Part shown: positions 4,373-22,217 of the stretch, piece after piece | How positions within the stretch are numbered: position 1 is the stretch's first letter | Layout: every line of letters starts with the position of its first letter | Assembly: GCA_965601575.1 (NCBI GenBank) | Contig: CBFCWR010000001.1 | Span: 1 to 27,309, forward strand | Reading direction: 5' to 3' | Origin: an uncultured Desulfofustis sp. | GTDB taxonomy: Bacteria; Desulfobacterota; Desulfobulbia; Desulfobulbales; Desulfocapsaceae | Length of the DNA: 27,309 nt | Program-made: the position numbers and the translations under genes | The notes under the pieces: generated by a model | What the model was told of the DNA's origin: nothing | The model's input: the letters and a program-made list of their open reading frames with translations, nothing else | The model's database searches: none

Positions 4373-4602
4373 AAATTCCTCCGGTCGGGTTGCGATGAGA
4401 TAGATGTAAGCCTTTCGAATGAGGCTTTGGATTACCCATTAGATAATTCCCATCCTGCAGAAAGCAAGATGAAATCTCTCAATCTCAGGTATTTATTCGA
4501 TATCTAATATAAAATCTGATTGGAAATAGCGGAATTGAAGGGGGGGAGGATGAGCCCTGAATAGGGGAGATTGCCATCTCACCTCGTTGATGTTAGCTGG
4601 GA

Positions 4603-6300
4603 TCACATCTTACCATGACGCAGGATTGAAACCAGCAGCCAGAATCCCATCATGCCGGCGAGCAGGAAGCCTATGAGGCCTATGATGGGGATATCGTGCC
4701 ATTTTGGAGGGATTCCGGACAGAACGATCAGTGATGAACCGATTACCAGAGATGCCAACACGATGGCAAAAGCTATCCGGTTTGACACCTGGTCAAGGGC
4801 AGCTCTCAGTTCGGACAGACCGCGGTGCTCAAACTCCATCTTGATCCTGCCCTGCCGAAGCTGAGCCAAGATCGTCCTGATCTCTTCCGGCAGATCCCTC
4901 AGCAGCTCGACATATTCAGAGGTCGTCACACCTGTCTCTTCTGCTATCCGGTTGATACGCACCCGTTCCGCCTTGACCTTTTTCATGAATGGTTCGGCGA
5001 GCTTGATGAGCTCGAGATCCGGATCAAGAATACGCCCGACTCCTTCGACGGTGGTTATCGCTTTCATCATGAGATAAAAGTTGGGCTTGAAGAATATCTT
5101 ATGATGGGAGACCAGGTCGAGCATGTCCTGCAGGATCTGGCCGGCTTCGAGTTCTTTCAAAGGCAGGTACATGTACTTGTCGAGCATATCGGAAAGATCG
5201 CGGCTCAGTGCCTCTCGGTCGACGTCCTCCAACTGGTTCGTCAACTTGAGTACACTTTCCGTTACCTTGCGCTCGTTGTTCCGGACCACATGGAGTATGA
5301 GATCGGCGAAATCCTCGCGGTTCTGTCGGCTCAGCCTTCCCATCATGCCGAAATCGAGGAAGCAGATGACATCGTCCGGCAGAATAAATATGTTGCCGGG
5401 GTGCGGATCAGCATGGAAAAAACCATGAACGAAGATCTGCTCCATGATCAGGTTGGTGCCCCGTTCGGCTACCAGGCGCAGGTTCGCGCCCTGCTCGAGG
5501 AGCTGATCGACCTCGGAGGCTTTCACGCCGTCGATGCTTTCCATCGTCAAGATGCGTCTGCAGCTCAGCTCCCGGTAGACCCTGGGGACATAGATTGCGG
5601 AATTTCCTTTGAACTGCCTGCCGAACCGCTCAATGTTTGAGATCTCAACCGCGTAATCAATTTCCTTTGAGATGGTGCGGGCAAACTCCTCAACTATCGA
5701 ACTCGGGCGGTGGCCCTGCAGTTCTTCCAGATAGCGCTCCATCAGGGAGGCGATATGGGCAATTATTTCGAGATCTATGGCAATGGTTTTTTCGATATCG
5801 GGCCGCTGTACCTTGACCACGACAGTGGTGCCATCGTGCAACACGCCCCGGTGAACCTGGCCGATGGAAGCGGCCGCGATCGGTTCGGAATTGAATTCTT
5901 TGAACAGTTCGTCCGGTTTTTTGCCGGTTTCCTCAATGAAAATCTGTTCAACGTCCTCGTATGAGAAAGAGGGGACGTCATCTTGTAATTTGGCCAATTC
6001 AATCAGATAATCCGGCGGGATGAAATCAGACCTGGTGGAAAGAACCTGACCGAGTTTGATGAACGTCGGGCCAAGTTCTTCACAAGCCATGCGTAATCGT
6101 TCTTCTCGAGAGAGCCTGTCGATCTGCTCCTTGGGTTTGCGGTTGATCATCTGCAGACCGCTCTCCAGGTACTGGTCGATATGGAGCATTTCAATGGCAT
6201 CCGCGAAACCGTATTTGAAGAGAATGCGTACTATCCTCTGGTATCTGTTCAGATGCCGGTAAGTTCTCCCGATTGATCCTATCTTTCTGATGCTGAACAT
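4603..6300 (-). CDS. ABC1/AarF/UbiB family atypical protein kinase
   Basis: LGPTFIKLGQVLSTR, AAASIGQVH, VVKVQRP, FFHADPHPGN and LDFGMMG, plus two C-terminal TM helices. Confidence 0.95.
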   Translation of the reverse strand: MFSIRKIGSIGRTYRHLNRYQRIVRILFKYGFADAIEMLHIDQYLESGLQMINRKPKEQIDRLSREERLRMACEELGPTFIKLGQVLSTRSDFIPPDYLIELAKLQDDVPSFSYEDVEQIFIEETGKKPDELFKEFNSEPIAAASIGQVHRGVLHDGTTVVVKVQRPDIEKTIAIDLEIIAHIASLMERYLEELQGHRPSSIVEEFARTISKEIDYAVEISNIERFGRQFKGNSAIYVPRVYRELSCRRILTMESIDGVKASEVDQLLEQGANLRLVAERGTNLIMEQIFVHGFFHADPHPGNIFILPDDVICFLDFGMMGRLSRQNREDFADLILHVVRNNERKVTESVLKLTNQLEDVDREALSRDLSDMLDKYMYLPLKELEAGQILQDMLDLVSHHKIFFKPNFYLMMKAITTVEGVGRILDPDLELIKLAEPFMKKVKAERVRINRIAEETGVTTSEYVELLRDLPEEIRTILAQLRQGRIKMEFEHRGLSELRAALDQVSNRIAFAIVLASLVIGSSLIVLSGIPPKWHDIPIIGLIGFLLAGMMGFWLLVSILRHGKM

Positions 6301-7067: not shown

Positions 7068-8366
7068 ATGGGCAAGAATCTTTTCATTGTCGGACTGGAT
7101 CCGTTCCATCTCCTCCAGCTAAAGGCCCTCGCTCGCTCCAGCGAATACCATTTCATATCACTGATATCATACGAAGAAATCAAGTGCGGATCACATTTCC
7201 CGGTACGCGGGTTTCTCGAGCAGGCACCGAGGCTCCTCGCCGACTATCCCGGGAGAGCCGATGCCATCCTCGGCTACTGGGATTTCCCCGTCAGCACCAT
7301 GCTACCTATCCTCCAGAAACAGCAGGGCCTTAGGGGACCAAGCCTAGAGGCCGTGCTGATGTGCGAACATAAATACTGGAGCCGGTTGAAACAACGGGAG
7401 ATCATCCCCGAATTTATCCCGGCTTTCCAGCAGGTCGATCCGTTCAACCCGGAGGCTGTTCAAGACTGCAGTCTCACCTATCCGTTCTGGCTCAAGCCGA
7501 TCAAGTCTGTACTCTCGCATCTGGGCTTCATGATCCGCGACCAAATGGAGTTCGAGACGGCGCTGGCAAAGATTCGCAAGGGCATCGCCCGGTACGCAGA
7601 ACCCTTCAACGACATTTTTAACCGGACCGATATTCCAGCCGAAATTAAAGCAGTCGACGGTTATCGCTGCATTGCAGAAAGTTTGATTTCGGCGGGTCGT
7701 CAGTGCACGCTCGAGGGGTATGTGCATGATGGAGAGGTACATGTGTACGGCATCGTCGACTCCGTGCGCGAAGGCAAACACCAGTCCAGCTTCTCTCGCT
7801 ACCAGTACCCCTCCATCCTGCCGCCGCAGGTTCAGCAGCGGATGATAGCGACGACCCGCAAACTGATTACGCATTTGGGCTACTCCGATGCCCCGTTTAA
7901 CATAGAATTTTACTGGGATGACCGGCGTGACTCCATAAGCTTGCTGGAGATCAATACCCGCATCTCCAAGTCACACTGTCCGCTGTTCAAAATGGTAGAC
8001 GGCGAGTATCACCATGATGTGATGATCGACGTCGCCCTGGGCAGAGCGCCACGTTTTCCCCACCGGCAGGGACGCTTTGCCACTGCGGCCAAATTCATGG
8101 TGCGGTGTTACCGGGACGGCAAGGTACTGACCATACCGGGACCTGATGAGGTGAAACGGTTCAGGGAGCGGTTTAGTGGGGCCGATGTTCAAGTCAACGT
8201 AATTCCAGGAATGCGCCTCTCCGACCTTCGCGACCAGGACAGCTACAGTTACGAGATCGCAGATCTGTTCATGGGAGCCGATTCAAATGAAGAACTCCTG
8301 GCCAATTACCACGAAGCCCTGACCATGCTGCCTTTCCATATTGTCCATGATGAGGAGAGTATATGA
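7068..8366 (+). CDS. ATP-grasp domain protein (biotin-carboxylase-like / L-amino-acid-ligase-like fold)
   Basis: HKYWSR, FWLKPIKSVLSHLG, ESLI, TLEG, NIEFY and LEINTR ATP-grasp motifs; GGAGG RBS 7 nt upstream. Confidence 0.88.
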   Translation: MGKNLFIVGLDPFHLLQLKALARSSEYHFISLISYEEIKCGSHFPVRGFLEQAPRLLADYPGRADAILGYWDFPVSTMLPILQKQQGLRGPSLEAVLMCEHKYWSRLKQREIIPEFIPAFQQVDPFNPEAVQDCSLTYPFWLKPIKSVLSHLGFMIRDQMEFETALAKIRKGIARYAEPFNDIFNRTDIPAEIKAVDGYRCIAESLISAGRQCTLEGYVHDGEVHVYGIVDSVREGKHQSSFSRYQYPSILPPQVQQRMIATTRKLITHLGYSDAPFNIEFYWDDRRDSISLLEINTRISKSHCPLFKMVDGEYHHDVMIDVALGRAPRFPHRQGRFATAAKFMVRCYRDGKVLTIPGPDEVKRFRERFSGADVQVNVIPGMRLSDLRDQDSYSYEIADLFMGADSNEELLANYHEALTMLPFHIVHDEESI

Positions 8367-10387
8367 AAATCATCCGCTCGTTTAAGCACACTGTAAGACA
8401 AGTAGAGAACGTCTGGATTCCAATGCCTGACGGGGTTCAACTCGCCGCCCGAATCTGGTTGCCGGAGGAAGCGGATAGTACCCCGGTACCGGCGATTCTC
8501 GAATACATCCCCTACCGCAAAAGAGACTCCAAGCGCAGTCGTGATACGCAGATCTACACTTACTTCGCCGGCCACGGTTATGCCGGTGTAAGGGTTGACC
8601 TCAGAGGCAGCGGCGATTCTGAAGGGGTGCTCCGGGATGAATACCTGCAAGTGGAACTGGACGACGGCCTTGCCATTCTGCAATGGCTTGAACAGCAAAA
8701 GTGGTGCAACGGCAGAGTGGGGATGATGGGAATTTCATGGGGAGGTTTTAATGCGTTGCAGATTGCCGCCCTGCAGCCGCCCCAGTTGCGGGCGGTAATT
8801 TCTGTGTGTTCGACGGACGACCGTTTTGCCGATGACGTCCATCACATGGGCGGCTGCCTGCTGGGTGACAATCTCTCCTGGGCCTCCACCATGTTCGCCT
8901 ATAACTCATGCCCGCCGGATCCTGAAATCGTCGGCGAGCGCTGGCGTGAAATGTGGTTTGAACGTCTCCAGGGCAGCGGGCTCTGGCTGGAAAAGTGGCT
9001 GCGGCACCAGCGTCGTGATGATTACTGGAAGCACGGCTCGGTGTGCGAAAACTTCGAGGCCATCCAATGTCCGGTCATGGCCGTGAGCGGCTGGGCGGAT
9101 GGCTACTCCAATGCGGTCTTCCGTCTCATCGAGGGGTTGCAGGTGCCGCGCCTCGGGTTGATCGGCCCCTGGGGCCACAATTACCCTCACGTCGGCGTAC
9201 CTGGTCCTGCTGTCGGCTTTCTGCAGGAGGCCTTGCGCTGGTGGGACAAATGGCTCAAGGATATCGAAACAGGCATCATGGAAGAACCGATGCTACGTGC
9301 CTGGATGCAGGACAGTGTACCGCCGACCACCAGCTACGAGCTGCGCCCTGGGAAATGGGTGGCCGAATCCACCTGGCCGTCGCTGCGCTCGACGATGAAA
9401 GCCTACGCACTTGCTCCGGCCAGGATGCTGGTCAGTTTCCCTAAGCCGCAGAAGGAGGAGTGCCGCAGTCTGCAGTCGCCGCTGGGCTTGGGCCTGTTCG
9501 CCGGTAAATGGTGCTCCTATGCCTCCGCCCCCGATATGCCCTACGATCAGCGTCAGGAGGACGGCGGTGCCCTGGTCTACGACAGTGCCCCCCTGGCGAC
9601 CCCGCTGGAATTATTGGGGGCACCCCGGATCGAGCTGGAGCTCGAGGCAAACCGGCCCGCCGGCATGATTGCCGTACGCCTTTCGGATATCGCCCCCGAC
9701 AACAAGGCCACCCGTTTTACCTACGGGCTGCTGAACCTGACCCACCGCGACAGCCACGAGCTGCCGCAGCCGCTCGTGCCCGGAAAAAGGTACCTGGTCA
9801 AAATGGCCCTTAATTACGTGGCCCAGCGAATTCCTGCCGGTCATCGTGTGCGTGTGGCTGTCTCGACTTCTTACTGGCCGATGGCCTGGCCGTCCCCGGA
9901 AGCAGTGCAACTCAAGATTTACACCGGCAAAAGCATGCTCTTCCTGCCGGTGCGCAAATCACGTCTTGAGGATACCCAGATCCGTGCATTCGATGCTTCG
10001 GAGGCAGCCCCCCCCTTGCGCGTCAACGTGATCAAGCCTCAACATCATAACTGGAGGGTCGTCCGTGATCTGGCCAGGGACATTTCCACGCTGGAGGTAA
10101 TCAACGACGACGGCGTCCAGCTTATCAACGAAATCGACTTGACCATCGGCCGTTCCACCAAGGAATGGTATACGTACCAGGGGGATGATTTCAATTCAGT
10201 CAGAGGCGAGACCCTTTGTGAACGAAGTTTCTGCCGAGGTTCCTGGTCCACCAGGACGGTCACGAGGACCGTCTTGACCTCTTCCCGGAAGGCTTTTTTT
10301 GTCTGTGCAGAACTCGACGCATACGAAGGGGATAAACGGGTATTTTCTGAAAACTGGGACTCTGTCATACCCCGTGACTTTGTCTGA
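8363..10387 (+). CDS. CocE/NonD family hydrolase (peptidase S15 / Xaa-Pro dipeptidyl-peptidase-like)
   Basis: EYIPYRK, VDLRGSGDSEG, nucleophile GISWGG, GWADGY (Asp) and GPWGH (His), then a C-terminal beta-sandwich. The start overlaps the upstream stop (ATGA). No signal peptide. Confidence 0.93.
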   Translation: MKIIRSFKHTVRQVENVWIPMPDGVQLAARIWLPEEADSTPVPAILEYIPYRKRDSKRSRDTQIYTYFAGHGYAGVRVDLRGSGDSEGVLRDEYLQVELDDGLAILQWLEQQKWCNGRVGMMGISWGGFNALQIAALQPPQLRAVISVCSTDDRFADDVHHMGGCLLGDNLSWASTMFAYNSCPPDPEIVGERWREMWFERLQGSGLWLEKWLRHQRRDDYWKHGSVCENFEAIQCPVMAVSGWADGYSNAVFRLIEGLQVPRLGLIGPWGHNYPHVGVPGPAVGFLQEALRWWDKWLKDIETGIMEEPMLRAWMQDSVPPTTSYELRPGKWVAESTWPSLRSTMKAYALAPARMLVSFPKPQKEECRSLQSPLGLGLFAGKWCSYASAPDMPYDQRQEDGGALVYDSAPLATPLELLGAPRIELELEANRPAGMIAVRLSDIAPDNKATRFTYGLLNLTHRDSHELPQPLVPGKRYLVKMALNYVAQRIPAGHRVRVAVSTSYWPMAWPSPEAVQLKIYTGKSMLFLPVRKSRLEDTQIRAFDASEAAPPLRVNVIKPQHHNWRVVRDLARDISTLEVINDDGVQLINEIDLTIGRSTKEWYTYQGDDFNSVRGETLCERSFCRGSWSTRTVTRTVLTSSRKAFFVCAELDAYEGDKRVFSENWDSVIPRDFV

Positions 10388-10626: not shown

Positions 10627-12015
10627 ATGTGCTTCTCTCCTGTCATTTCCCGCCTGCGATGGGCACGGCTGTTTTGTGTCATTATCCCGCTCTGCCTGTT
10701 ATTTGCTGTTCCCTGCCTTACTTCAGGATCCGAAGAGAAAAGTTCGGCGCTGGTTCTCAGCATAGACGGCACCATCAATCCCGCGGTATCAGACTACATC
10801 AGAAAAGGGTTTCAACTGGCCGCAGAGCAAGGCGCTGCTCTACTGATTATCCAGATGAATACGCCCGGGGGACTCGACGCCTCGATGAGGGATATCATTC
10901 AGGAAATTCTCTCTTCTCCGATCGCCGTGGTAACCTACGTGTGGCCGGACGGCGCCAGGGCCGCAAGTGCCGGCACCTATATTCTCTATGCCAGCCACGT
11001 GGCCGCCATGTCACCGGCAACCAATCTCGGGGCCGCCACTCCCATTCAGATCGGCGGTCTGGGCGATGGCAGGGAAGGAAAGGAGGATGAGGGAGATGCG
11101 GCTGAAGATACCAGGTCGACCCTTGAGAAAAAGGTAATCAATGATGCCAGCGCCTATATCAAGGCCCTTGCCGACAAACACAACCGCAACGGCGAATGGG
11201 CGGTAGAGGCTGTGCAGGAGGCGGTGAGCCTGACCGCCCGCGAAGCACTCGAGCTGAACGTCATCAACATAGTGGCTGAGAACCTTGAAGATCTGCTTGA
11301 ACAGCTTGACGGCTTCCAGCTCAGCGTGGACGGTGAACCGGTATCTTTGATCACCTCCGGGGTGCGCGTGAATCATTTCGAGCAGAGCTGGCGCTACAAA
11401 TTACTCGGGGTAATCAGCGACCCGACCATAGCCTATCTGCTCCTGCTGCTCGGCTTTTACGGGCTTATCTACGAACTGGCCAATCCTGGTTTTCTGCTGC
11501 CGGGGGTGGCAGGCGGCATCTCCCTGATACTTGCCATGTACGCGCTTCAGCTGCTGCCGGTTAATTACAGTGGGCTGGTGCTGATGATACTGGGGATAGG
11601 CTTTCTTATTGGCGAGGCCTTTATGCCAAGTTTCGGTACCCTGGGTATTGGCGGAATCATCGCTTTTGCCGCCGGCTCCCTCATCCTCATCGACGATCAA
11701 ACCATGCGTGTCGCGCTGCCCACCATCATCGGCACCACGGCGGTGTCGGCGCTCTTTGTTATCCTGCTGATGAGCAGGGTGGCGGTGATGCGGCGACAAC
11801 GCATTCACACCGGTGTCGAGGCGATGGTCGGGACGAGGGGCGAGGCGCGATCAGATTTCACCGGCTCCGGCCTGGTCTGGGTAAACGGGGAGTCCTGGAA
11901 TGCACAGTCCAGTGTGCCAGTGAAAAAGGGAGACCAGGTGAAAATACTGTCCGTATCCGGTCTTGAACTCATTATCGAACCATTGAAGGAGGACTCTGGC
12001 CATGATCACTCCTGA
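10627..12015 (+). CDS. nfeD: Long-form NfeD membrane-bound serine protease (ClpP-like N-domain, TM bundle, OB-fold)
   Basis: Signal peptide, IDGTINP, MNTPGG, AASAG (Ser), NLGAATP, EKKVIND (Lys), multi-TM region and C-terminal VNGESWNA; GGAGG RBS. Confidence 0.93.
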   Translation: MCFSPVISRLRWARLFCVIIPLCLLFAVPCLTSGSEEKSSALVLSIDGTINPAVSDYIRKGFQLAAEQGAALLIIQMNTPGGLDASMRDIIQEILSSPIAVVTYVWPDGARAASAGTYILYASHVAAMSPATNLGAATPIQIGGLGDGREGKEDEGDAAEDTRSTLEKKVINDASAYIKALADKHNRNGEWAVEAVQEAVSLTAREALELNVINIVAENLEDLLEQLDGFQLSVDGEPVSLITSGVRVNHFEQSWRYKLLGVISDPTIAYLLLLLGFYGLIYELANPGFLLPGVAGGISLILAMYALQLLPVNYSGLVLMILGIGFLIGEAFMPSFGTLGIGGIIAFAAGSLILIDDQTMRVALPTIIGTTAVSALFVILLMSRVAVMRRQRIHTGVEAMVGTRGEARSDFTGSGLVWVNGESWNAQSSVPVKKGDQVKILSVSGLELIIEPLKEDSGHDHS

Positions 12016-12817
12016 TTTTCTGACCCCCAATCTGATGAGCTATGTGATTCCCCCCCTGCTGGTCGTTGGCCTGATTGCCCTGTCGCTGAAGATAGTTGCA
12101 GAGTACGAGCGTCTGGTCGTGCTCTTTCTCGGGCGTTTTCAGGCGGTCAAACAGCCGGGACTGAGAATCGTGGTGCCGGGTATCCAGCGTGCCTTTCGGG
12201 TGGATCTGCGGGTTATCACCATGGACATCCCGCCCCAGGATGTGATTTCCCATGACAATGTCACGGTTCGGGTAAACGCGGTGCTCTATTTCAGGGTCGT
12301 GGATCCGGAAAAAGCCATTATCCAGGTTGAAGACTACAGCACCGCGATCAATCAGCTCGCCCAGACAACGCTTCGCTCGGTACTGGGGCAGCATGATCTG
12401 GATGAAATGCTGGCCGACCGTGAAAAGCTCAATGACAATATCCAGCAGATTATAGACAAGAGAGCCGATGCCTGGGGCATCAAGGTGATCAACGTCGAAA
12501 TCAAGCATATCGATCTCAATGACTCGATGATCAGGGCGATCGCCAGGCAGGCCGAAGCAGAGCGAGAGCGAAGGGCAAAGATAATTCATGCCGAAGGTGA
12601 ATTTCAGGCAGCTGAAAAACTGCTCTCGGCAGCGAACATTATATCGCAAAACAGCCAGGCCCTGCATCTCAGGTACCTGCAGACATTAAATGACATTTCG
12701 ACCAACAAGACCTCGAACACCATCGTCTTCCCGCTGCCGCTGGAATTCATCAAGTCAATGGGGCCGAAGAGTCTGGATCTAAAAGACGGCGCCGGGCAGC
12801 AGGAGCCCGCCGTTTAG
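12002..12817 (+). CDS. Stomatin-like (slipin, SPFH/band-7) protein
   Basis: N-terminal TM, EYERLVVLFLGRF, VDLRVITMDIPPQDVISHDNV, AQTTLRSVLG, QAEAERERRAKII and LRYLQTL; overlaps the nfeD end by 14 nt. Confidence 0.95.
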   Translation: MITPDFLTPNLMSYVIPPLLVVGLIALSLKIVAEYERLVVLFLGRFQAVKQPGLRIVVPGIQRAFRVDLRVITMDIPPQDVISHDNVTVRVNAVLYFRVVDPEKAIIQVEDYSTAINQLAQTTLRSVLGQHDLDEMLADREKLNDNIQQIIDKRADAWGIKVINVEIKHIDLNDSMIRAIARQAEAERERRAKIIHAEGEFQAAEKLLSAANIISQNSQALHLRYLQTLNDISTNKTSNTIVFPLPLEFIKSMGPKSLDLKDGAGQQEPAV

Positions 12818-13086
12818 TGACCCGGCCGGGTGACCAATCGTAATGTCTTCAGTGAGTTATTGGCCCTTCTGCCGCCATTTTGTGTGAGCGTTTATGAGAC
12901 AATGACAACCGTTACGTGCTGTTCAACAGGTCCGCGTTCATTTTCTCATCACCGGGGTGCAGTTTTTCGGGAAAATCGGCCCCGAAAAGAGAGTCAGAAA
13001 ACTTGCTATTAGGCCGTTTTTTGCAGGATAATTAAGTAGAGCCTGAGTCCTTTTTTACTCACTGCGATGTCAAAAAGGAGGTCGTC

Positions 13087-15147
13087 ATGGCGAAGACAAA
13101 ACAGAACGGTCTGCATCACCACATCACCGCCGTAAAAAAAGGTGAACGCGCCTTCGAGAATGCCTTCCAGGCAGTCTCACGGATGATCCTCGAAAAGAAG
13201 ATTGACAAGGTCATTGTCAACGGTAAAAGCACTTTCGATTATCTGATCTTTCGCCAAGCAGAGAAGCATATCATCGGCATGTATGATGAGATAAACTCGT
13301 TCGTGTCTTTCGTGAAAGACGCCTCACAGGGCGGATCGTCCGGGGAAATGGCTTTCGTGCTCGTTGGTGAGCCCGGCAACGGCAAGACATTTCTGGTCGA
13401 ATACCTGTGCACCTTGTATCGGCAATTTCTCTTTCGCGAGGAAAACAGGCGCTATACGTTCCGGTTCAACGGCATGAGCCAACTCGGTCATTACGGTGAC
13501 ATAAACGTCATCGAATCACAGACCTATGAAGACCCCATGGTCCTGGCCATGAATCTGCTCGAATCGGCGGACGATTCCCGCAATTATCTGGCCCGCCGCT
13601 ATCGACTGAGCACTGCGATTATTGAGAAATGGTGGCAGAATTATCGGCCGCTTGGCGCCTGTACCGCCTATATCTGGAATGATATAAGGGACTTCACCGG
13701 GGGTAAACTCGAGGATATGCTGAAATTCGTCGAGATCGTGCCGGTCCCCCTGACTGAAAGTCTCGGCACGGTAACCGGAAAATATCCGGCCAAGGATAAG
13801 ATTACCTCATCCGCGGTAGACCTGCTGGGAGAGGAGTCGATTCAGAGGCTTCTGCACATAACCGACACCAACAACCCTTATCGCTTCGATCTTCGCAGGG
13901 GGGCGCTGGCCCGGGTCGCCGGTGGAGGCATCCATTTCAGCGATGAGATCTACAAGAACAAAAAGGACCTTGTCCAGGTCTATCTCAGCATTATTCAAAA
14001 CAGGACGATAGAAATAGACGGCTACAAATGGCCCATCGACACGCTCATCGTGGCCACCAGCAACAATGCCGAATTCAATAAGTTCCTGGCTGAAAAAGAG
14101 GAAGCACCGATCATTGACCGCTGTCGCGTCTGCTATGTGTCGCATAATACCGACTATCGCCTGCAGGGCCAGCTCACGGATTACGCCATTGGCGATAAAA
14201 CAAAAACGACCCTGACCGGAGACGAGCTGCACCAGGATCCAAATCTCAATTACGCCGCTTCGGTGGGGGTTGCCTTGACCAGATTGCCGCGCTCGGAGAA
14301 GTTGACGCCCATCGAAACCATGAAACTGGCTGCGGGCGAGGTAGCGGGAGAAAAATCGATAAAAACCCTTTCGGAAGTCATCGACACCTTGAACCAGGAC
14401 GCCGACGTCACCAGCCGTTTTGGCCAGAAAGGTCTGGGGCAGAGAAATCTGGGGCGGGCCATGCAGCTGATGCTTGAAAGTTCGGAAACGAACGAGGGGC
14501 AATGCATGTTTGCCTACGACATCTACAATGCCCTGGAGCGCATTGTCCTGGACTATGTGCCGGAGCCAACCGACCGGGCGAAATTTCTCGATGACCTGAA
14601 GACGGCACGCGGCCTCTACCGGGAGCGGATCATGACGGAAATGTTCAACGCTTACATGGATGAGCCGCTGGCAATCAGAAAGGACGTTCTGAACTACGTG
14701 AACATGATCATCGGCATCGATGCCGAAAATCTCGGCCCCGACCAGCTGTGGAAATATAAAAATCCGCAGACCGGGGAACTGCAGGCATTGAAAATCGACG
14801 AGCGCTATATCAATTCCGTGGAAGATTGCCTCGGGCTGAAAATAAAAGAACAGAAGGATACCTTCAGGACATCGATCCGTAAGATTTACGGTCAGAAGAT
14901 CTCGACGAACCCGAACTACGATTTTATGGACAATCTCGAACTGGTCAAAGCGGTCACCGATGTGCGGTTGAAATCAGATATTGCCGGGGCCGGCAGTCTC
15001 ATCGGTGCACTGGCGAACAGAACGAATGAGGAAAATCAGAAGCTCTACGACCGGATGGTGGACACCATGTTGAACAAGCTGGGCTACTGTAGAACCTGCG
15101 CCCAGAAAACCATTGAGTACTTCTGCACGCAGGTGGATGAAACATAG
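13087..15147 (+). CDS. prkA: PrkA/YeaG family AAA+ ATPase (annotated serine protein kinase), copy 1
   Basis: Walker A GEPGNGKT, Walker B IHFSDE, sensor SNN, Arg-finger IIDR and C-terminal LGYCRTCAQKTIEYF; AAGGAGG RBS. Confidence 0.9.
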   Translation: MAKTKQNGLHHHITAVKKGERAFENAFQAVSRMILEKKIDKVIVNGKSTFDYLIFRQAEKHIIGMYDEINSFVSFVKDASQGGSSGEMAFVLVGEPGNGKTFLVEYLCTLYRQFLFREENRRYTFRFNGMSQLGHYGDINVIESQTYEDPMVLAMNLLESADDSRNYLARRYRLSTAIIEKWWQNYRPLGACTAYIWNDIRDFTGGKLEDMLKFVEIVPVPLTESLGTVTGKYPAKDKITSSAVDLLGEESIQRLLHITDTNNPYRFDLRRGALARVAGGGIHFSDEIYKNKKDLVQVYLSIIQNRTIEIDGYKWPIDTLIVATSNNAEFNKFLAEKEEAPIIDRCRVCYVSHNTDYRLQGQLTDYAIGDKTKTTLTGDELHQDPNLNYAASVGVALTRLPRSEKLTPIETMKLAAGEVAGEKSIKTLSEVIDTLNQDADVTSRFGQKGLGQRNLGRAMQLMLESSETNEGQCMFAYDIYNALERIVLDYVPEPTDRAKFLDDLKTARGLYRERIMTEMFNAYMDEPLAIRKDVLNYVNMIIGIDAENLGPDQLWKYKNPQTGELQALKIDERYINSVEDCLGLKIKEQKDTFRTSIRKIYGQKISTNPNYDFMDNLELVKAVTDVRLKSDIAGAGSLIGALANRTNEENQKLYDRMVDTMLNKLGYCRTCAQKTIEYFCTQVDET

Positions 15148-15189
15148 ATAGCAGATTCGGAAACTCATTGATCAGACTGAGAGGTTGCG

Positions 15190-16515
15190 ATGATTGATGA
15201 TTCTCGAAAAAAATACCGGTCCCTCTCTGCTGCAGGGCCGGCACCTCCCCCGCCTCCCCCCGGTTTTATTCGACCCCTCTATGACTATCATGACGCCGAG
15301 GCCTGGTCCCTGACGCCGATACTTAAATTGGCTGCCATGGCGCCGACCCGTTCACTCGATGAATTGATGACCCGGGACAAACAGCGGGAGAAGGACGGTT
15401 TTCCACGAAAAATATTTCTTGGCAAAGTGGTGAAACCGGGCGGCAAGGATGACGAGCGCGTCGTCGTGGTGCCGACAACGGTGGAAGAAAAATTTCTCCA
15501 TGATGCGGTGGTTGTGGATGAAGACAGTGAGGGGGGCGCAGGAGGCGAAGATCCGCTCTACGGGGGCCAAGGTGAGGGGGAAGAAGGGGAGATCATCGGC
15601 GAACAGCCCATCAGAAACGGCCCGGAGGGGGGAGCAGGAGCGGGTCATGGTGAGGGAACCATCCATGAAATCGAGTCGAATGCCTACGAGCTGGGCAGGG
15701 TGCTTACCGAAGAGTTCAAACTGCCCAACCTGAAGGACAAGGGTAAAAAAAGGTCCCTCACGAAATACTCCTACGACCTCACCGACAGACACAAAGGCTT
15801 TGGCCAGGTCATAGACAAGAAAGCGACGTTGCGGCAGATAATCAAGACCAACATCGGTCTCGGCCGAGTCCACCAACGGGCAAGAGTCAGAACGGATGCG
15901 CTGCTGGTTTCACCACATGATCGCATTTACCGGATTCTGTCCAAGGAGAAGGATTATGAATCCCAGGCAGTGGTGTTTTTTCTCAGGGATTATTCGGGAT
16001 CCATGGGAGGAAGGCCGACGGAGGCGGTAGTAAGTCAGCACATCATGATCTACTCCTGGCTCACCTATCAATATGAGAACCAGGTCGAAACCAGATTCAT
16101 CCTCCATGATACGGAAGCGAAAGAAGTCGAAAACTTCAACATTTATTACAACTCCAAAGTAGCCGGGGGAACCCAGGTGGCATCGGCATACCGGTTGGTA
16201 AACCGGCTGGTGGAAAAGGAGAATCTGGTACGAGACTACAATATCTATGTCTTCCATGGAACCGATGGCGACGATTGGGACACGAAGGGTGAAGAGGCAC
16301 TTCCGGAACTCAGGAAAATGCTCACTTACGTCGCCCGCATAGGTATCACTATCGCCGAGAATAGCTTCGGCATTCCAGGACGAAGCGACCTGGAGCGCTA
16401 TATCAGAAAATCGGGGCTGCTGGATGAAAAGCCCAGCCTGCTCAGGCTTGACGTTTTAGGCAGGGAAAGCAGCGAGTCAAGGCTTATTGAAGGTATCAGG
16501 GCACTGATATCGTAG
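15190..16515 (+). CDS. DUF444 / YeaH-YhbH family vWA-like protein
   Basis: ELPNLKDKG-like FKLPNLKDKG, DKKATL, MIDAS RDYSGSM, FILHDTEA, GGTQVASA and HGTDGDDW. The start codon is uncertain; ATG 15337 is an alternative. Confidence 0.9.
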   Translation: MIDDSRKKYRSLSAAGPAPPPPPPGFIRPLYDYHDAEAWSLTPILKLAAMAPTRSLDELMTRDKQREKDGFPRKIFLGKVVKPGGKDDERVVVVPTTVEEKFLHDAVVVDEDSEGGAGGEDPLYGGQGEGEEGEIIGEQPIRNGPEGGAGAGHGEGTIHEIESNAYELGRVLTEEFKLPNLKDKGKKRSLTKYSYDLTDRHKGFGQVIDKKATLRQIIKTNIGLGRVHQRARVRTDALLVSPHDRIYRILSKEKDYESQAVVFFLRDYSGSMGGRPTEAVVSQHIMIYSWLTYQYENQVETRFILHDTEAKEVENFNIYYNSKVAGGTQVASAYRLVNRLVEKENLVRDYNIYVFHGTDGDDWDTKGEEALPELRKMLTYVARIGITIAENSFGIPGRSDLERYIRKSGLLDEKPSLLRLDVLGRESSESRLIEGIRALIS

Positions 16516-16528
16516 GAGATGAGCATCC

Positions 16529-18157
16529 ATGGAACTGATCAGCCAACATGCAAAAAAAATAATGGAGGGATGCAAAGAACGGGCTCGCGAGGTTGGGCTC
16601 AGTTTTCAGGACGACAGCCTTGAATATATTGTCACCAACCGGGATATTCTGGAATTGTCACCCAAGACGATGATTCCCACCCTGTATGACTATTGGGTCC
16701 AGGATGTCGAAGTGTTGCGGGAGTTCGGCCGCTACGAACTCTTCCCCTACAACCCCTATGAGACGGTAATCAACACGCGGCCGCCTATCTCGTTTTATAA
16801 CGACAACAATCCGGACTGGCTCAACGTGATGATTTTTTATCACGTCATTGGCCATATCGACTTCTTCCAGAACAACCTTTTTTACCAGCACACCTGGGAT
16901 TACGATTTTACCAGCAGGGCACTCTCCGATAAGCGACTGATCAGCCAGCTCCGCTCTGAAAAGGGACGCTGGGTTGATTACATAATCGAATTCGCCAGAT
17001 CGATCGACAATCTGGTGGGCTATTTTTCGATGATGTCGGCCCAGAGACAGCTGTACTTCACCCGGACAGTGACCGCGGTCGATTACTATTTCGATAGATT
17101 CCTGCAGGAAGAGGCGAAGGTGTCCGTACCGGACTACTTCAAGGAAATCGAACGGTATAATAGCCTGTTGCGCACACATCCGGACGACACGGACGAGAAG
17201 TTTCTCGATGAAGTACGGTCGCGCCATGCCGAATTCGACTCGTACTGGAACAAATATCAGGAGCAGGATAGAACCGCCGATTGTCACGACCTCCTGGAAT
17301 TTATCATGGAACATTCCAGTTTTCTCAACAAGGAAGAGAACCGCTGGATGAAAATGGTCATTGAGGTCATCCGCAATACCTCGCTTTATTTCCAGCCCCA
17401 GATTCGAACCAAGATTCTCAACGAAGGGTGGGCGAGCTACTGGCACGAAAAGCTGTTCCTGAGCGATGATCGGATTAGCGGGCATGAAATTGATTTTGCC
17501 AGGGTGCATGCCAAGGTGACATCGATGCGGCGCATCGGTCTGAATCCCTATGCGTTGGGCATGCATATGTTCTTTTTCCTTGAAAATATGGCAGACAAGG
17601 GGCGGATCAGCAGCGACTACCGCCGTCTGCGCGACAGAACCAGGCGGGACACTTACGACAACGGTGCCGGCCAGGGACGAGACTTTATTTTCAACATACG
17701 CAGAACCTATTGCGATTCGATGTTCGTTGCCGACTACATCACGCAGGATTTTATTGATGAGCACAAACTGTTCGTTGCCGGCAGAAAACTCAATGAACAG
17801 CGCATGACCTGGCAGTATTACGTCAAGAGCCGAAGTGCAGAGGATTACCGGGACATGGTGTTGGACTCTCTGTACCATCCTCCCGCCATTGAGTTTGAAA
17901 CAACTCCTGAAAACCACCTGCATCTGCACCATCTCTTCGAGGGGAAACCGCTGGTGCGTGACTACATTGCCGGAACGATGCTTGGTATCGAGTATCTGTG
18001 GGGCGACCAGGTTATCCTGGACACCTTTGAGCCGGTCAAAAAAGAGGTTGCCAGTGACACGGGTGATGCCGCCAAGACGGAAACCCCCAGACAGGAGATA
18101 GGCTGGAACAAGGTAAGATACAAGATGCGCGACAGGCAACTGTCCCGTAAAGAGTGA
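16529..18157 (+). CDS. SpoVR/YcgB family protein
   Basis: YETVINTRP, FYHVIGHIDFFQNN, YFQPQIRTKILNEGWASYWH and LNPYALG; adjacent to DUF444. Confidence 0.93.
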   Translation: MELISQHAKKIMEGCKERAREVGLSFQDDSLEYIVTNRDILELSPKTMIPTLYDYWVQDVEVLREFGRYELFPYNPYETVINTRPPISFYNDNNPDWLNVMIFYHVIGHIDFFQNNLFYQHTWDYDFTSRALSDKRLISQLRSEKGRWVDYIIEFARSIDNLVGYFSMMSAQRQLYFTRTVTAVDYYFDRFLQEEAKVSVPDYFKEIERYNSLLRTHPDDTDEKFLDEVRSRHAEFDSYWNKYQEQDRTADCHDLLEFIMEHSSFLNKEENRWMKMVIEVIRNTSLYFQPQIRTKILNEGWASYWHEKLFLSDDRISGHEIDFARVHAKVTSMRRIGLNPYALGMHMFFFLENMADKGRISSDYRRLRDRTRRDTYDNGAGQGRDFIFNIRRTYCDSMFVADYITQDFIDEHKLFVAGRKLNEQRMTWQYYVKSRSAEDYRDMVLDSLYHPPAIEFETTPENHLHLHHLFEGKPLVRDYIAGTMLGIEYLWGDQVILDTFEPVKKEVASDTGDAAKTETPRQEIGWNKVRYKMRDRQLSRKE

Positions 18158-18176
18158 TCATGAGCGGGGTAAGACA

Positions 18177-20381
18177 ATGCATGACGTGACGAGGGCACTT
18201 ACCAAGCTGATAGACAAGAATCAGGACTGGCAGAAAGAGCCGTTGTTGAGCTTTGCCGAATTTTTAGAGGAGGCGACTTCCCAGCCTGCCCTGATCATCA
18301 GGAGCATCTATCAGCTTTACGCAGACATGATAGACAACTACATCTGCGAGGAAATCGACGAGTATCAGGATGACCTGGAGTCCCTGCAGTATGTGGCCTA
18401 TGACTGCCAGGATTTGCTGGCCGTCGGCACTGACCGCCCGTTTTTTGCCGATCAGCTGTTTGCCAACCGACTGGTGCGTCACGTTGACTCATTGTCGATC
18501 GGTGCCCAGCAGAATAAAGTGTACATATTCGATGGGCCGCCCGGCAGCGGGAAATCGACTTTTCTCAACAACCTGCTGAGAAAATTCGAGGAGTATACCG
18601 CCTCGTCTGAGGGACTGCGATACGAGATAGTGTGGCGCCTTGCCGATGAACCATCAGAATCAGCTGCGGCTGGCGATGCCGCAGCGCACGGGAGGAAAGA
18701 ATTTGACGTTCCCTGCCCGAGCCATGACAACCCCGTCCTCATCGTTCCCCTTGATTCCCGTCGGCGTTTTTTTGATGATCTTTTCGAAAACGACACCTTC
18801 AAGTGGGAGTTTTTCACCGATAAGAAGTTCGAGTGGGTATTTAACGACCAGCCCTGCACGATCTGCAGTTCGATCTTCGATGCCCTGATGCAGAAATATC
18901 ATCACATCGGCAAGGTGTTGGAATACGTATACGCCAGGCCTTACGTATTCAACCGGCGTCTGGGCGAAGGTATTTCGGTGTTTAACCCGGGAGACAAGCC
19001 CATCAAACGAACGGTGCTGCAACACGAAGCCATCCAGAAAAAGCTCGACAAATTGTTTCCAGACTCCAGGCCGATACGATATCTCCACTCGCACTACGCC
19101 AGAACAAACAACGGCATCTATGCGCTGATGGATATCAAGTCCCATAATACCGAAAGATTGATGGAACTCCATAATATCATCAGCGAAGGGGTGCATAAGG
19201 TTGAGGAACTGGAAGAAAGCGTAAAATCGCTTTTCTTTGCCCTGATGAACCCGGAGGATAAGAAACAGCTCAAGGGACTGGATGCCTTCAGGGATAGAAT
19301 TGAGTATATACATATCCCCTATGTCCTTGATATAAAAACAGAAGTTGATATTTATCGGGAAATTTTCGGGAAACACATCGACGAAAGTTTTCTGCCTCGC
19401 GTGCTCCACAATTTCGCCAGGGTGATCATCGCCACCAGGCTGGAGCCGGAGTCAGAAGCAATGCGTGCCTGGATCACCGATCCCGGCCAGTATGAATTAT
19501 ATTGCGATAAGAGTCTGCTGCTTCTGAAAATGGAAGTGTATGCGGGCTCCATACCGAGTTGGCTTTCGGAAAGCGATTTGAAAGGCTTTACCCCGAAACG
19601 GCGGCGGCAGATCCATGAGGAAGCGATAAGGGATGGATGGAAGGGCTTTTCCGGCAGGGACTCGATCAGGATTTTCAATGAGTTTCTCTCTACCTATTCA
19701 AGCGAGAGCAGGCTCATCGATATGTCCATGCTGGTTAAATTTTTCCAGAAGTATTGCCAGAAAGACAAGGATATCATCCCCGACCATTTTCTCGATTCGC
19801 TGCTGCAGATGTACAACTACATTGTACTCCAGGAGGTCAAGGAGGCGTTGTACTACTATAACGAAGATCAGATCGCCATCGATATCCAAAACTACATATT
19901 TGCCGTCAACTTTGATCCCGGCACCACGGAAACCTGTTTGTTCACCGGTGACAAACTGCATATTACCGAGGAGCTGTTCTCCAGGATCGAGACGCGACTG
20001 GTGGGCGATCCGAAAGATGGGGAAGCGTTTAGAAATGATGTGCAGAAGACCTATACCACCAGCACGCTCACCCATGAAATCATGCAGGAGAGGCTTCCCA
20101 TCGTCGAGACAACGCTGTTTCAGAATCTTTTCCAGAGGTATGTCCATAACCTCAAGGAAAAGGTGCTCGAGCCGTTTTTAAAAAATGAGAACTTCCGTAT
20201 GGCCATACGTGATTTTGACACCGATGAATTCAGAACCTATGACGACAAAATCGGTAACGATGTCACCTTTATGATAGAAAACCTGCAGAGCAGATACGAC
20301 TATACCAGACAAGGTGCCAAAGCAATCTGCATGTACGTGGTCGACAACGAAATCGCCCAGCAGTTCGAGGGCAAGGGTTGA
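18177..20381 (+). CDS. Second, divergent PrkA-like AAA+ protein
   Basis: Walker A GPPGSGKS, CPSHDNP, ARTNNGIYALMD at the Walker B position (no Glu), AFRDRI Arg-finger, GFSGRDS and C-terminal YDYTRQGAKAICMYV. Confidence 0.88.
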   Translation: MHDVTRALTKLIDKNQDWQKEPLLSFAEFLEEATSQPALIIRSIYQLYADMIDNYICEEIDEYQDDLESLQYVAYDCQDLLAVGTDRPFFADQLFANRLVRHVDSLSIGAQQNKVYIFDGPPGSGKSTFLNNLLRKFEEYTASSEGLRYEIVWRLADEPSESAAAGDAAAHGRKEFDVPCPSHDNPVLIVPLDSRRRFFDDLFENDTFKWEFFTDKKFEWVFNDQPCTICSSIFDALMQKYHHIGKVLEYVYARPYVFNRRLGEGISVFNPGDKPIKRTVLQHEAIQKKLDKLFPDSRPIRYLHSHYARTNNGIYALMDIKSHNTERLMELHNIISEGVHKVEELEESVKSLFFALMNPEDKKQLKGLDAFRDRIEYIHIPYVLDIKTEVDIYREIFGKHIDESFLPRVLHNFARVIIATRLEPESEAMRAWITDPGQYELYCDKSLLLLKMEVYAGSIPSWLSESDLKGFTPKRRRQIHEEAIRDGWKGFSGRDSIRIFNEFLSTYSSESRLIDMSMLVKFFQKYCQKDKDIIPDHFLDSLLQMYNYIVLQEVKEALYYYNEDQIAIDIQNYIFAVNFDPGTTETCLFTGDKLHITEELFSRIETRLVGDPKDGEAFRNDVQKTYTTSTLTHEIMQERLPIVETTLFQNLFQRYVHNLKEKVLEPFLKNENFRMAIRDFDTDEFRTYDDKIGNDVTFMIENLQSRYDYTRQGAKAICMYVVDNEIAQQFEGKG

Positions 20382-20461
20382 GATGTAACTCTTCTTGGGG
20401 ATGTCTTCAGGTCACTGCTCTCCAAAGACCTTTCTCAAACTCCACTCAGTTATGGCGAATA

Positions 20462-21559
20462 TCATTGGTCTCCTGACTGTAAAAGCCAGTAGTCGAGACC
20501 TTCCTTCTCGGCGGCCTGGAGGCGAGATCGGTGTGCTGCCGACTTGCCGGTGGTCAGCAGCTCGGTGAGATCGCCAATTACCTCGGGATTGAAAAGGTGG
20601 TAGATGTGCCCTGAGAATCTCCTCAAATTGATGGCGGATATATCTATGCTTTCTACTTCTTCGAATATCGTCAGATCTTTTCCCGCCTGGCCAAGACGCG
20701 GATAGCCATGCACCTCCTGCGATAGTTTCAGGGCCTTGTCGTTGTCCGACACATAGACGGTGATTCGCCTGACTAGTTTTTTCAGCTGGGGTAATTCCTG
20801 GCGAAATATATCGATATCAATATCGGGTGCGATGAGCACCAGTTCGTTGAGCAATGTGTTCTCATTGGCACGGTAGGACAGGCGGGCGAGCGCCTGGACG
20901 ATCCCCCTGGCTCCCAGGCTGTGGGCGACCACATCCAAATTTCCATCCCCGGTCGCCGCGACTGCCAGATCGAGAAATTCAGCGATATGCGGGACGCTCC
21001 AAACCAGATCGGCCTCGTCCCAGGTGTATTTCAACATGTTGCCGTCAGCCGGCCAGCTGAACAGCAGCAGTCTCTCCTCGAGTCCAAGGGCGCGCTGAAG
21101 CAGGGCGCCGCGGCGGCAGCTCTTTTCAAAATCAATATTGTAGCCATGAATGTAGAGAACCAGATTGCCACGGTCCCTGTCGGGGAGAGCTTTGATCGTC
21201 CGCCCCAGATCCTCCAGCGAAGCCTCCTGAATACTTACCATTTCAATCTTTTCATCAGGAATATAGAAAGGGACTGTCTCGGCAATTTCATCGAGTCCCC
21301 AGATTGGGGAGAAACTCACGGTACAAAACCCCGCCTCCAGCTGCCCGCGACTGCCGCCGTAATAGTGTGCCGGCTCGGTTTCTCCGGTTCTGTTGCGCAA
21401 AGTCACAAATGGTACCGAAACTTTTTCAATCATGCGCTCCATTGCATCTGTATCCTCCTGGGCTTCCCCCGAACGTACGGCGCCGATGGCCCTGGTTCCA
21501 GGGTGTGAGATCGCAATAAGTAGAGATAAAGCAGCAAAAACAAATTTGTGGTGTGGCAT
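20462..21559 (-). CDS. DUF900 family alpha/beta hydrolase (esterase/lipase), probably secreted
   Basis: LYIHGYN, FSWPADG, nucleophile elbow VAHSLG, IAPDID, DKALKLS..HGYPRLG and GHIY. ATG 21559 precedes a signal-like MPHHKFVFAALSLLIAIS; the ORF track extends it to 21697. Confidence 0.88.
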   Translation of the reverse strand: MPHHKFVFAALSLLIAISHPGTRAIGAVRSGEAQEDTDAMERMIEKVSVPFVTLRNRTGETEPAHYYGGSRGQLEAGFCTVSFSPIWGLDEIAETVPFYIPDEKIEMVSIQEASLEDLGRTIKALPDRDRGNLVLYIHGYNIDFEKSCRRGALLQRALGLEERLLLFSWPADGNMLKYTWDEADLVWSVPHIAEFLDLAVAATGDGNLDVVAHSLGARGIVQALARLSYRANENTLLNELVLIAPDIDIDIFRQELPQLKKLVRRITVYVSDNDKALKLSQEVHGYPRLGQAGKDLTIFEEVESIDISAINLRRFSGHIYHLFNPEVIGDLTELLTTGKSAAHRSRLQAAEKEGLDYWLLQSGDQ

Positions 21560-21560
21560 A

Positions 21561-21758
21561 TTATCTGCGTTGGGACACGCGTGAATTCCAGGAAGTTGGC
21601 CTGCTACCTCTCGCCACCCCCACCAAAGGCGACGCGAGAACAAAAACCTCATCGCTGTCCGGGGAGCGAACGAAAACGAGGTCGGTATTTGAGACAATCG
21701 CGTAATGGAGGCTATCGGGCTCGAGGTGCTTGAGTTCTGCCAGATGCACTTTTTTCAT
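21561..21758 (-). pseudogene. Probable 5' remnant of a Rieske-domain (glutamate-synthase-related) gene
   Basis: Strong GAGGAG RBS. The first ~41 aa (LAELKHLEPDSLHYAIVSNTDLVFVR..DEVFVL) resemble, from memory, the strands preceding the CxH ligand motif of Rieske domains. No CxH follows in any frame and the remainder looks non-coding. Confidence 0.5.
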
Positions 21759-22217
21759 TATGTTCTCCTCGGAATACGCTGAAAAACCAACATTCAGACC
21801 GTTGGTGAATAATCAAGAATCGCTGACCCGTCTCAGGTGCAACTCAATATAATCTAGATTGTAAGACTAATGTCATTCCCTGTACTGGCAAGTCATGGAC
21901 AATAGTTTGTCAGGTAATGTCCGGCTGGTCGACCCACGCTGGAACTCTGCTTGTTCACCCTGTATAATAACGAGACGTAGCTGAAGACCACACTGAGTTG
22001 GTTGGCATCGGGGCTGAGCCTTTTTCTCTCGCGCGTATGTCCACGATGGCTTTTGCCAGATGAAGGCCTTGGATCACTCTCCAGTAAGCGTGAGGGAGCC
22101 CGGCCTTTCATAGTTGTGAGAAACGATGGCGACAGTAACATTCCAGCAAAGAGGTTGAGGGTTTATCCAGGCCTTGCACGATCGATTCAGAGATGAAAGT
22201 TGTCCGGAGGAAAAGAG

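Follow-up and report, generated by a model that had tools for sequence, protein, structure and literature searches.

Why should a cell encode two PrkA proteins in a module that elsewhere contains only one, and is the second of them still able to hydrolyze ATP? This question is raised by an operon at positions 13,087 to 20,381 of a 27,309-nt stretch of DNA, hereafter the window, which corresponds to positions 1 to 27,309 of contig 1 (CBFCWR010000001.1) in the genome assembly of an uncultured Desulfofustis sp. (GCA_965601575.1, a metagenome-assembled genome (MAG) of 3.19 Mb and 89% completeness). The PrkA/YeaG-YeaH-SpoVR module is found widely among bacteria and archaea, where it has been tied to starvation, sporulation and persistence-like states, and its biochemistry is disputed, as PrkA has been regarded as a kinase, a protease or a remodeling ATPase. 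Canonical modules (yeaGH and ycgB in E. coli; prkA-yhbH and spoVR in B. subtilis) contain the same three families in the same order as the window, and their PrkA has the same two-domain architecture. However, they hold a single PrkA, while here there are two, PrkA1 and PrkA2, each on its own long branch and below the cut-off of the YeaG equivalog. An original prediction, made from the nucleotide sequence alone, had described a four-gene machine in which PrkA2 binds nucleotide and donates an arginine finger without hydrolyzing ATP.

What is new here is a conserved three-way divergence of the Walker B motif in the PrkA family, together with the retention of the sensor residues in PrkA2. The reading that we favor, to which we give about an even chance, is that PrkA1 and PrkA2 belong to a single AAA+ assembly and contribute unequal nucleotide sites to it. 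The locus itself is ordinary, as the variant is widespread and annotated, although uncharacterized, and hundreds of copies are present in sulfate-reducing and other bacteria; the value of the analysis therefore lies in the hypothesis and not in this particular copy. The two-PrkA version is a natural experiment, in which nucleotide binding, hydrolysis and the metal-binding insert can be mutated separately, and the three clade-specific Walker B solutions bear on how the existing ATPase data on PrkA are to be read.

Two PrkA paralogues and their nucleotide sites

The operon consists of four open reading frames (ORFs), all on the forward strand and separated by gaps of 42, 13 and 19 nt, in full agreement with the arrangement of co-oriented genes and 13-42-nt gaps that had been claimed:

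13087-15147, forward strand: PrkA1, PrkA-family AAA+ protein of 686 amino acids (Pfam PF08298 and PF06798)
15190-16515, forward strand: YeaH/DUF444, vWA-type protein of 441 amino acids (Pfam PF04285)
16529-18157, forward strand: SpoVR/YcgB-family protein of 542 amino acids (Pfam PF04293, E 1.9e-58)
18177-20381, forward strand: PrkA2, PrkA-family AAA+ protein of 734 amino acids with an altered Walker B (Pfam PF08298 and PF06798)

These identities are close to certain. PF08298 (AAA_PrkA) and PF06798 (PrkA C-terminal domain) score 49.7 and 130 bits on PrkA1 and 37.1 and 171 bits on PrkA2, against a cut-off of 25 for both families, and the two proteins align with each other from end to end (hhalign probability 99.5%, 620 columns, 17% identity), which bears out the description of both as full-length PrkA-family AAA+ proteins. 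Neither reaches the cut-off of 576 bits of the canonical YeaG equivalog NF011999 (PRK15455) in NCBIfam, PrkA1 scoring 41.8 bits and PrkA2 18.3 bits. YeaH scores 119 bits with PF04285 (cut-off 27) and 657.8 bits with NCBIfam NF003712 (cut-off 421), and SpoVR scores 198.6 bits with PF04293 (cut-off 27) and stays at 82 bits with the canonical YcgB equivalog NF008737, whose cut-off is 679. PrkA1 and PrkA2 are the only PrkA genes in the whole assembly. In a phylogenetic tree, PrkA1, PrkA2 and canonical PrkA form three separate clades, each with 100% bootstrap, the stem of the PrkA1 clade being very long (2.59) and its crown very shallow. Across 80 genome loci, PrkA1 proteins are 78-96% identical (median 82%), and the medians over the 65 complete loci are 82% for PrkA1, 64% for YeaH, 63% for SpoVR and 59% for PrkA2, so that, as far as sequence identity goes, PrkA1 is a very slowly evolving protein.

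We then located the residues of the two nucleotide sites, where each of the motifs previously quoted (GEPGNGKT, IHFSDE, GPPGSGKS, IYALMDIK and AFRDRI) is indeed present:

13366-13389, forward strand: Walker A of PrkA1, GEPGNGKT (G94-T101)
13930-13947, forward strand: Walker B of PrkA1, IHFSDE (I282-E287), with D286-E287 at 13942-13947
14062-14121, forward strand: PrkA1 from the sensor-1 Asn N326 (14062-14064) to the arginine of D344-R345 (R345 at 14119-14121), placed by the clade alignment
18534-18557, forward strand: Walker A of PrkA2, GPPGSGKS (G120-S127)
18714-18866, forward strand: Cys3-His cluster of PrkA2 (C180, H183, C227, C230), in an insert of the AAA+ domain
19116-19139, forward strand: Walker B equivalent of PrkA2, IYALMDIK (I314-K321), in which M318 is followed by D319 (19131-19133)
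19248-19298, forward strand: PrkA2 from the sensor-1 Asn N358 (19248-19250) to D373-R374 (R374 at 19296-19298), placed by the clade alignment and the model

Conservation was assessed in an alignment of 241 PrkA1 proteins from several phyla and in one of 169 PrkA2 proteins, 50 of which are representatives of clusters at 50% identity. In PrkA1, Walker A is near-invariant (only P96 varies, being Ala in three members), D286 is found in 240 and E287 in all 241 proteins, and N326, D344 and R345, which align with the SNE...LDR of canonical PrkA, are each present throughout. PrkA1 thus has a Walker A, an hhhhDE Walker B (h, hydrophobic), a sensor-1 Asn and an arginine, and is predicted to be a competent AAA+ ATPase. 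In PrkA2, G120, G125 and K126 of Walker A are each conserved in 169/169 proteins and residue 127 is Ser or Thr, and the Walker B equivalent, IYALMD, departs from the hhhhDE pattern: M318 occurs in 163 of the 169 proteins, and D319 is Asp in 168 and Glu in the single exception. Since DE and MD are conserved throughout their clades, the Walker B difference is a fixed clade character and not drift in this genome, as the clade-wide alignment that had been suggested as a check now confirms (DE in 240-241/241, Asp in 168/169). The sensor-1 polar residue (N358, 167/169) and the arginine (R374, 169/169) of PrkA2 are present at positions placed by the model, N324 is invariant, R327 is invariant or nearly so, and R421 occurs in 168/169 proteins. 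The TRL arginine of the lid is retained across phyla. The AFRDRI segment that had been taken for an arginine finger (residues 370-375) does contain a conserved arginine, but this is R374, as only D373-R374 are conserved and R372 is peculiar to this sequence. The conserved arginines of PrkA1 and PrkA2 may act in trans.

Canonical PrkA offers a third solution, as its Walker B also lacks DE and is of the type hhEFhE (GIMEFVEMFK in E. coli YeaG; G[MVIL]xE[FY]IE[VI][FL]K in six canonical PrkA proteins from Desulfobacterota). There are thus three clade-specific forms, hhEFhE in canonical PrkA, hhhhDE in PrkA1 and hhhhMD in PrkA2. Canonical PrkA has a Glu at the catalytic position and a second Glu three residues upstream, whereas PrkA2 is left with a lone Asp, so that, judged by its residues, the PrkA2 motif is the most reduced of the three. 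It has been demonstrated that B. subtilis PrkA binds and hydrolyzes ATP through its Walker A, with a kcat of about 13 per minute (PMC9512850). As canonical PrkA hydrolyzes ATP without a DE motif, the lack of DE alone does not mean that a PrkA protein is inactive.

The register of D319 was derived from several comparisons. When the two paralogues and the two clade profiles are aligned with PDB entry 9xip (GIVEFIEILK) by HMMER, E287 and D319 fall opposite the same Glu, in accord with a three-clade MAFFT L-INS-i alignment, in which D319 lies opposite E287. In the latter, canonical PrkA and PrkA1 are anchored by E..KN, and canonical PrkA and PrkA2 by TE.L. In the AlphaFold2 (AF2) model of PrkA2, a strand running from I314 to L317 is followed by M318 and D319, which corresponds to the hhhh-D-E pattern. 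Moreover, residues 318-319 are ED or EE in three members of the PrkA2 clade. On account of the two anchors, the end of the strand at 317 and these ED/EE variants, we favor a register, not proven, in which M318 occupies the position of the Walker B Asp and D319 that of the catalytic Glu. The claim that PrkA2 has no catalytic Glu is therefore literally true, but a near-invariant Asp fills the position that most alignments equate with it.

The PrkA2 model is of good quality (predicted local distance difference test (pLDDT) 89, predicted template modeling score (pTM) 0.85), and it places N358 at the end of strand 352-357 and R374 just ahead of strand 375-379. The PrkA1 model has pLDDT below 50 over residues 262-290, which include Walker B, and 323-352, and is unusable for the register of D319 because of its low confidence across the Walker B region. 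Best structural matches of the PrkA2 model are B. subtilis PrkA, over the whole length (E 1e-21, TM 0.58/0.66), and YeaG, the next folds being the Mg-chelatase subunits ChlI and ChlD (E about 1e-4) and archaeal LonB. A Foldseek search of the PDB returned weak generic AAA+ matches only. A further acidic element stands out in PrkA2, namely a near-invariant Glu-Glu at E346-E347 (window 19212-19217; 166 and 165 of the 169 proteins), which lies in a predicted beta-hairpin just before the sensor-1 strand and might be the source of an acidic residue brought in from elsewhere.

PrkA2 also differs from PrkA1 in its Cys3-His insert, which PrkA1 has lost. Within the PrkA2 clade (n = 169), C180 is present in 169, H183 in 163, and C227 and C230 each in 167 proteins, and the three-clade comparison shows that the CPxH...CxxC cluster is common to PrkA2 and most canonical PrkA proteins, while being absent from PrkA1 and from E. 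coli YeaG. To judge from its conserved residues, it is a probable metal site. The only solved PrkA-family structure found, deposited as "Serine protein kinase" of 692 amino acids (PDB 9xip/9xiq/9xir), matches the PrkA2-clade profile at E 3e-44 and the PrkA1-clade profile at E 1.4e-20. It has a CPxH...CPxC cluster in common with PrkA2, whereas its Walker B, GIVEFIE, is of the canonical type. Our literature search found no paper on the 9xip structure and none on a Walker B asymmetry between PrkA paralogues.

AAA+ modules that are truly dead tend not to preserve features such as Walker A, sensor 1 or the arginine. In PrkA2, Walker A and sensor 1 persist across phyla, as do the DR and TRL arginines; the PrkA2 site is therefore best described as altered and not as dead, and its residues indicate that it is probably slow or regulated. 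Altogether, the proposal that PrkA2 does not hydrolyze ATP is weakened, given D319, the other nucleotide-site residues that are kept, and the hydrolysis of ATP by canonical PrkA without DE. Whether PrkA2 is impaired in hydrolysis seems to us evenly balanced.

Possible working of the two-PrkA module

The two remaining proteins of the operon complete the module. YeaH carries a complete metal ion-dependent adhesion site (MIDAS) motif, DxSxS...T...D:

15988-16272, forward strand: MIDAS motif of YeaH, formed by D267-Y-S269-G-S271 (15988-16002), GGT (326-328) and GTDGD (357-361)

These residues are present in 73-74 of 74 related loci, and the designation of YeaH as a MIDAS protein is thereby upheld. 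Its start codon at 15190 is supported by contigs from relatives, which begin to align exactly there. Residues 14-25 of YeaH (window 15229-15264) form a proline-rich segment, AAGPAPPPPPPG, ahead of the family-model match, which starts at about residue 50. For SpoVR, a structure search found no solved relative.

Based on these results and on known AAA+/vWA systems, the best reading by analogy is a hetero-oligomer with unequal sites, resembling the ChlI/ChlD pair of Mg-chelatase. In such a scheme, two anciently diverged paralogues would take the place of the single PrkA ATPase of the stress and starvation module, and would be joined, in a mixed ring or as two associated rings, into a single AAA+ assembly with unequal nucleotide sites. 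PrkA1 would be the main hydrolyzing motor, while PrkA2 would bind ATP and hydrolyze it slowly, or on a signal only, thus providing a timer or regulatory site, and would supply an arginine to the neighboring subunit. Much like the vWA subunit of Mg-chelatase and MoxR systems, YeaH could use its MIDAS metal to link the ATPases with an acidic residue on a partner protein, which may be SpoVR, a substrate or a PrkA subunit. The output would then be remodeling or controlled turnover of target proteins in starvation, and not serine phosphorylation. It is known that B. anthracis PrkA oligomerizes with ATP, and that the cofitness among YeaG, YeaH and YcgB is above r = 0.7 in six bacteria. We consider it somewhat probable that PrkA1 and PrkA2 belong to a joint complex. 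A bolder version, put forward tentatively and with more doubt than confidence, is that the pair constitutes an obligate hetero-oligomeric motor, with a fast DE site and a slow Met-Asp timer site tied to the Cys3-His metal module, which became fixed before several bacterial phyla diverged, and which replaced the homo-oligomeric canonical PrkA. If that is true, nature has provided a separation-of-function form of the YeaG-YeaH-YcgB machine, and the best system for finding its role.

The comparison with chelatases goes only so far. Mg-chelatase BchI/ChlI-BchD/ChlD, MoxR-vWA and CobS-CobT likewise encode together an active AAA+ protein, an altered-site AAA+ paralogue and a vWA/MIDAS protein, and Pfam similarity of the AAA_5 type was found in the PrkA proteins of the window (below the family cut-off for PrkA2). 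However, these proteins have no Mg_chelatase Pfam match, so that the similarity is one of fold and the comparison one of working principle, not of membership. ChlD consists of an AAA+ module followed by a vWA/MIDAS domain and is degenerate, and BchD is more degenerate than PrkA2. In the window, the vWA protein is encoded by a separate gene, while in Mg-chelatase it is fused to the altered AAA+ module; moreover, Walker A, sensor 1 and the arginine are all preserved in PrkA2. The system also has the additional helical C-terminal domain of PrkA (280 amino acids) and the SpoVR partner, and it shows no chelatase substrate context. A parallel in gene content is the haloarchaeal signature cluster of two PrkA genes, DUF444 and SpoVR, which were noted to be always linked (Anderson et al. 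2011, PMC3102087). By its published description, that cluster likewise combines two PrkA paralogues with DUF444 and SpoVR, except that its PrkA genes are described as adjacent while those of the window flank YeaH and SpoVR, and the paper does not discuss ATPase motifs.

Several observations weigh against a joint assembly with a slow PrkA2 site. The contact between PrkA1 and PrkA2 is itself inferred. One acidic residue could suffice for catalysis, and PrkA2 may be as active as YeaG. The arginine and sensor residues are kept in both paralogues, which fits equally well with two fully functional sites. Moreover, the hhalign profile-profile alignment differs from the register favored above, as it puts D319 opposite D286 and N324 opposite N291. 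Finally, that the pair substitutes for the single PrkA is not proven, since only about 1.2 co-occurrences of the two would be expected by chance in the genomes surveyed. In the main rival explanation, which we find rather unlikely, although worth serious attention, each paralogue is a competent ATPase that forms a homo-oligomer of its own, and the ancestral PrkA job is divided between the two, for example by substrates or by successive steps with YeaH and SpoVR, the Met-Asp motif being the PrkA2 clade's own version of an already unorthodox PrkA Walker B. Canonical PrkA, with its hhEFhE motif, does hydrolyze ATP, D319 is under strict selection, and the other site residues are kept in both paralogues. 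The rearranged loci described below (L093, L092 and L095) slightly favor the same explanation, as they suggest a modular and not a fixed stoichiometric use. Nevertheless, in the genomes searched one paralogue hardly ever occurs without the other (a possible orphan PrkA1 at L058, and P0315), PrkA2 has also lost the canonical upstream Glu and retains a single short acidic side chain, and the strong rate asymmetry between the paralogues suggests unequal roles.

At the other extreme, PrkA2 might be a nucleotide-binding and catalytically dead scaffold or adaptor with a purely structural role, a pseudo-ATPase like BchD/ChlD or the clamp-loader delta-prime subunit. This we consider improbable, as the acidic residue at 319 is never lost, and Walker A, sensor 1 and the arginine, which are usually lost in dead modules, are kept across phyla in PrkA2, even though M318 and D319 stand in place of the classical Walker B Asp and Glu, the rate of evolution is higher in PrkA2 than in PrkA1, and the PrkA2 model has a structural kinship to ChlI and ChlD. 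Even less credible is that the two copies are Ser/Thr protein kinases, or Lon-like ATP-dependent proteases, with different substrates. It is true that E. coli YeaG is reported to phosphorylate itself and casein, that an ATP-dependent degradation of alpha-casein was reported for B. subtilis PrkA (PMC9512850), and that Swiss-Prot names this protein an ATP-dependent protease; yet the same study found no kinase activity for B. subtilis PrkA (PMC9512850), and pure B. anthracis PrkA has negligible kinase and protease activity. In our own searches, Pfam gave neither a match to the Pkinase clan at E <= 0.01 nor a Lon_C or other peptidase domain in either PrkA, no kinase was found among the structural matches, and the similarity of PrkA to LonB/LonC is confined to the AAA+ module. 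The C-terminal domain is almost all helical in the confident PrkA2 model, where residues 448-734 are helical except for one small hairpin. The earlier suspicion that the serine-kinase label is misleading thus agrees with the missing Pkinase match, the helical C-terminal domain and the failure to find kinase activity for the PrkA proteins of B. subtilis and B. anthracis.

Distribution and variants of the operon

To follow the operon in other organisms, species-representative genomes were scanned with PrkA1, which returned at least 573 loci, and 80 of these were examined. The order PrkA1-YeaH-SpoVR-PrkA2, in the same orientation, was found in 68/80 loci. Ten of the other 12 end at a contig end and one (L063) at a masked run of N, so that only L058 is devoid of the three downstream genes. 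The co-inheritance of PrkA, YeaH and SpoVR that had been put forward thus extends to all four genes, which are inherited as a unit. Among relatives of the window's organism, PrkA1 and PrkA2 are either both present or both absent, and lie about 5.3 kb apart where they are on one contig. The same gene order was also found in a Patescibacteria contig and beside a PrkA2 only 33% identical to that of the window (L084, L085). Within the window's own genus, the operon occurs in only three of 12 other genomes. The PrkA1 of the window shares 96% identity with its counterpart in a Desulfofustis MAG, which places the organism in the Desulfobulbales. Cultivable organisms that carry the operon include Desulfobulbus propionicus DSM 2032, Desulfosarcina alkanivorans PL12 and Geotalea uraniireducens.

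Of the 80 loci, L058 (11043-14150) is the one true exception. Downstream of its PrkA1 (79% identical) lie about 3.1 kb in which there is no ORF of at least 150 amino acids and no trace of YeaH, SpoVR or PrkA2; decay of the operon or an assembly error could explain this. A solitary PrkA2-like gene, P0315, was also found, which is very distant.

Canonical three-gene operons occur in the same phylum as well. In a survey of 301 Desulfobacterota genomes, 18 had the PrkA1/PrkA2 pair, 20 had canonical PrkA only, and three had a third, two-copy type. Mutual exclusion between canonical PrkA and the pair was considered and rejected as evidence, as the two are found together in none of the 301 genomes, but chance alone would give only about 1.2 such cases.

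Some loci depart from the common layout. L093 (G278:C40:14000-27500) has five genes, PrkA2'-PrkA1-YeaH-SpoVR-PrkA2, in which PrkA2' lies directly upstream of PrkA1 and is 50% identical to the PrkA2 of the window. L092 (G056) and L095 (G129) represent a third type of two-PrkA operon and begin with a canonical-like PrkA (Walker B VEIHEIL), followed by YeaH, SpoVR and a very divergent PrkA-like protein of about 826-863 amino acids (LLHIHDAFGG). In the tree, the first copy groups with canonical PrkA and the second with neither PrkA1 nor PrkA2, and this separate grouping suggests that a second PrkA has been added more than once. An apparent SpoVR-PrkA fusion of 1367 amino acids in G129 was discarded, as it results from an out-of-frame ORF extension in a G+C-rich genome.

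Three further loci (L075, L080 and L077) encode PrkA1 proteins 78-79% identical to that of the window in MAGs labeled Bacteroidales, candidate division KSB1 and "Bacterium UASB270". These may reflect either horizontal movement of the operon or mis-binned contigs, and the two are hard to separate because PrkA1 is so extremely conserved.

Expression signals and flanking genes

Upstream of prkA1 there is a leader of 269 nt, in which a consensus scan gave one promoter candidate:

13003-13032, forward strand: sigma-70-like promoter candidate, TTGCTA-18-GATAAT, in the leader of prkA1

In that scan, the counts of promoter and terminator candidates were not above those in shuffled sequence, no sigma-54 site was found in the region upstream of prkA1, and an Rfam search of the whole window gave no match. 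A strong ribosome-binding site, AAAGGAGG, lies ahead of prkA1 at about 13073-13080. Regarding transcription, the depth of three sediment runs labeled "TRANSCRIPTOMIC Oligo-dT" (X3, X4 and X7) was flat over window positions 12000-21800, across the operon, its flanks and the opposite-strand neighbor. As the flanks are covered as evenly as the operon, these runs are uninformative on transcription, and they probably reflect DNA in the libraries or a wrong label. In a wetland metatranscriptome, only short contigs were found, which derive from relatives and fall on all four genes.

The genes flanking the operon appear unrelated to it. Directly upstream (window 10627-12817), an NfeD-family membrane protein (462 amino acids) and an SPFH/Band-7 protein (271 amino acids) are encoded with a 14-nt overlap, which is a classic NfeD-stomatin pair, on the same strand as prkA1 and set off from it by the leader. 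Downstream, the operon is followed by a DUF900 hydrolase on the opposite strand. Further upstream, at window 7068-10387, there is a 4-nt overlap between the genes of an ATP-grasp protein (432 amino acids) and an S15-family X-Pro dipeptidyl-peptidase-like hydrolase (674 amino acids), which may be a peptide ligase/hydrolase pair. On the reverse strand, at window 3293-6300, an OmpA-domain protein with an N-terminal vWA domain (359 amino acids) adjoins an ABC1/UbiB atypical kinase (565 amino acids).

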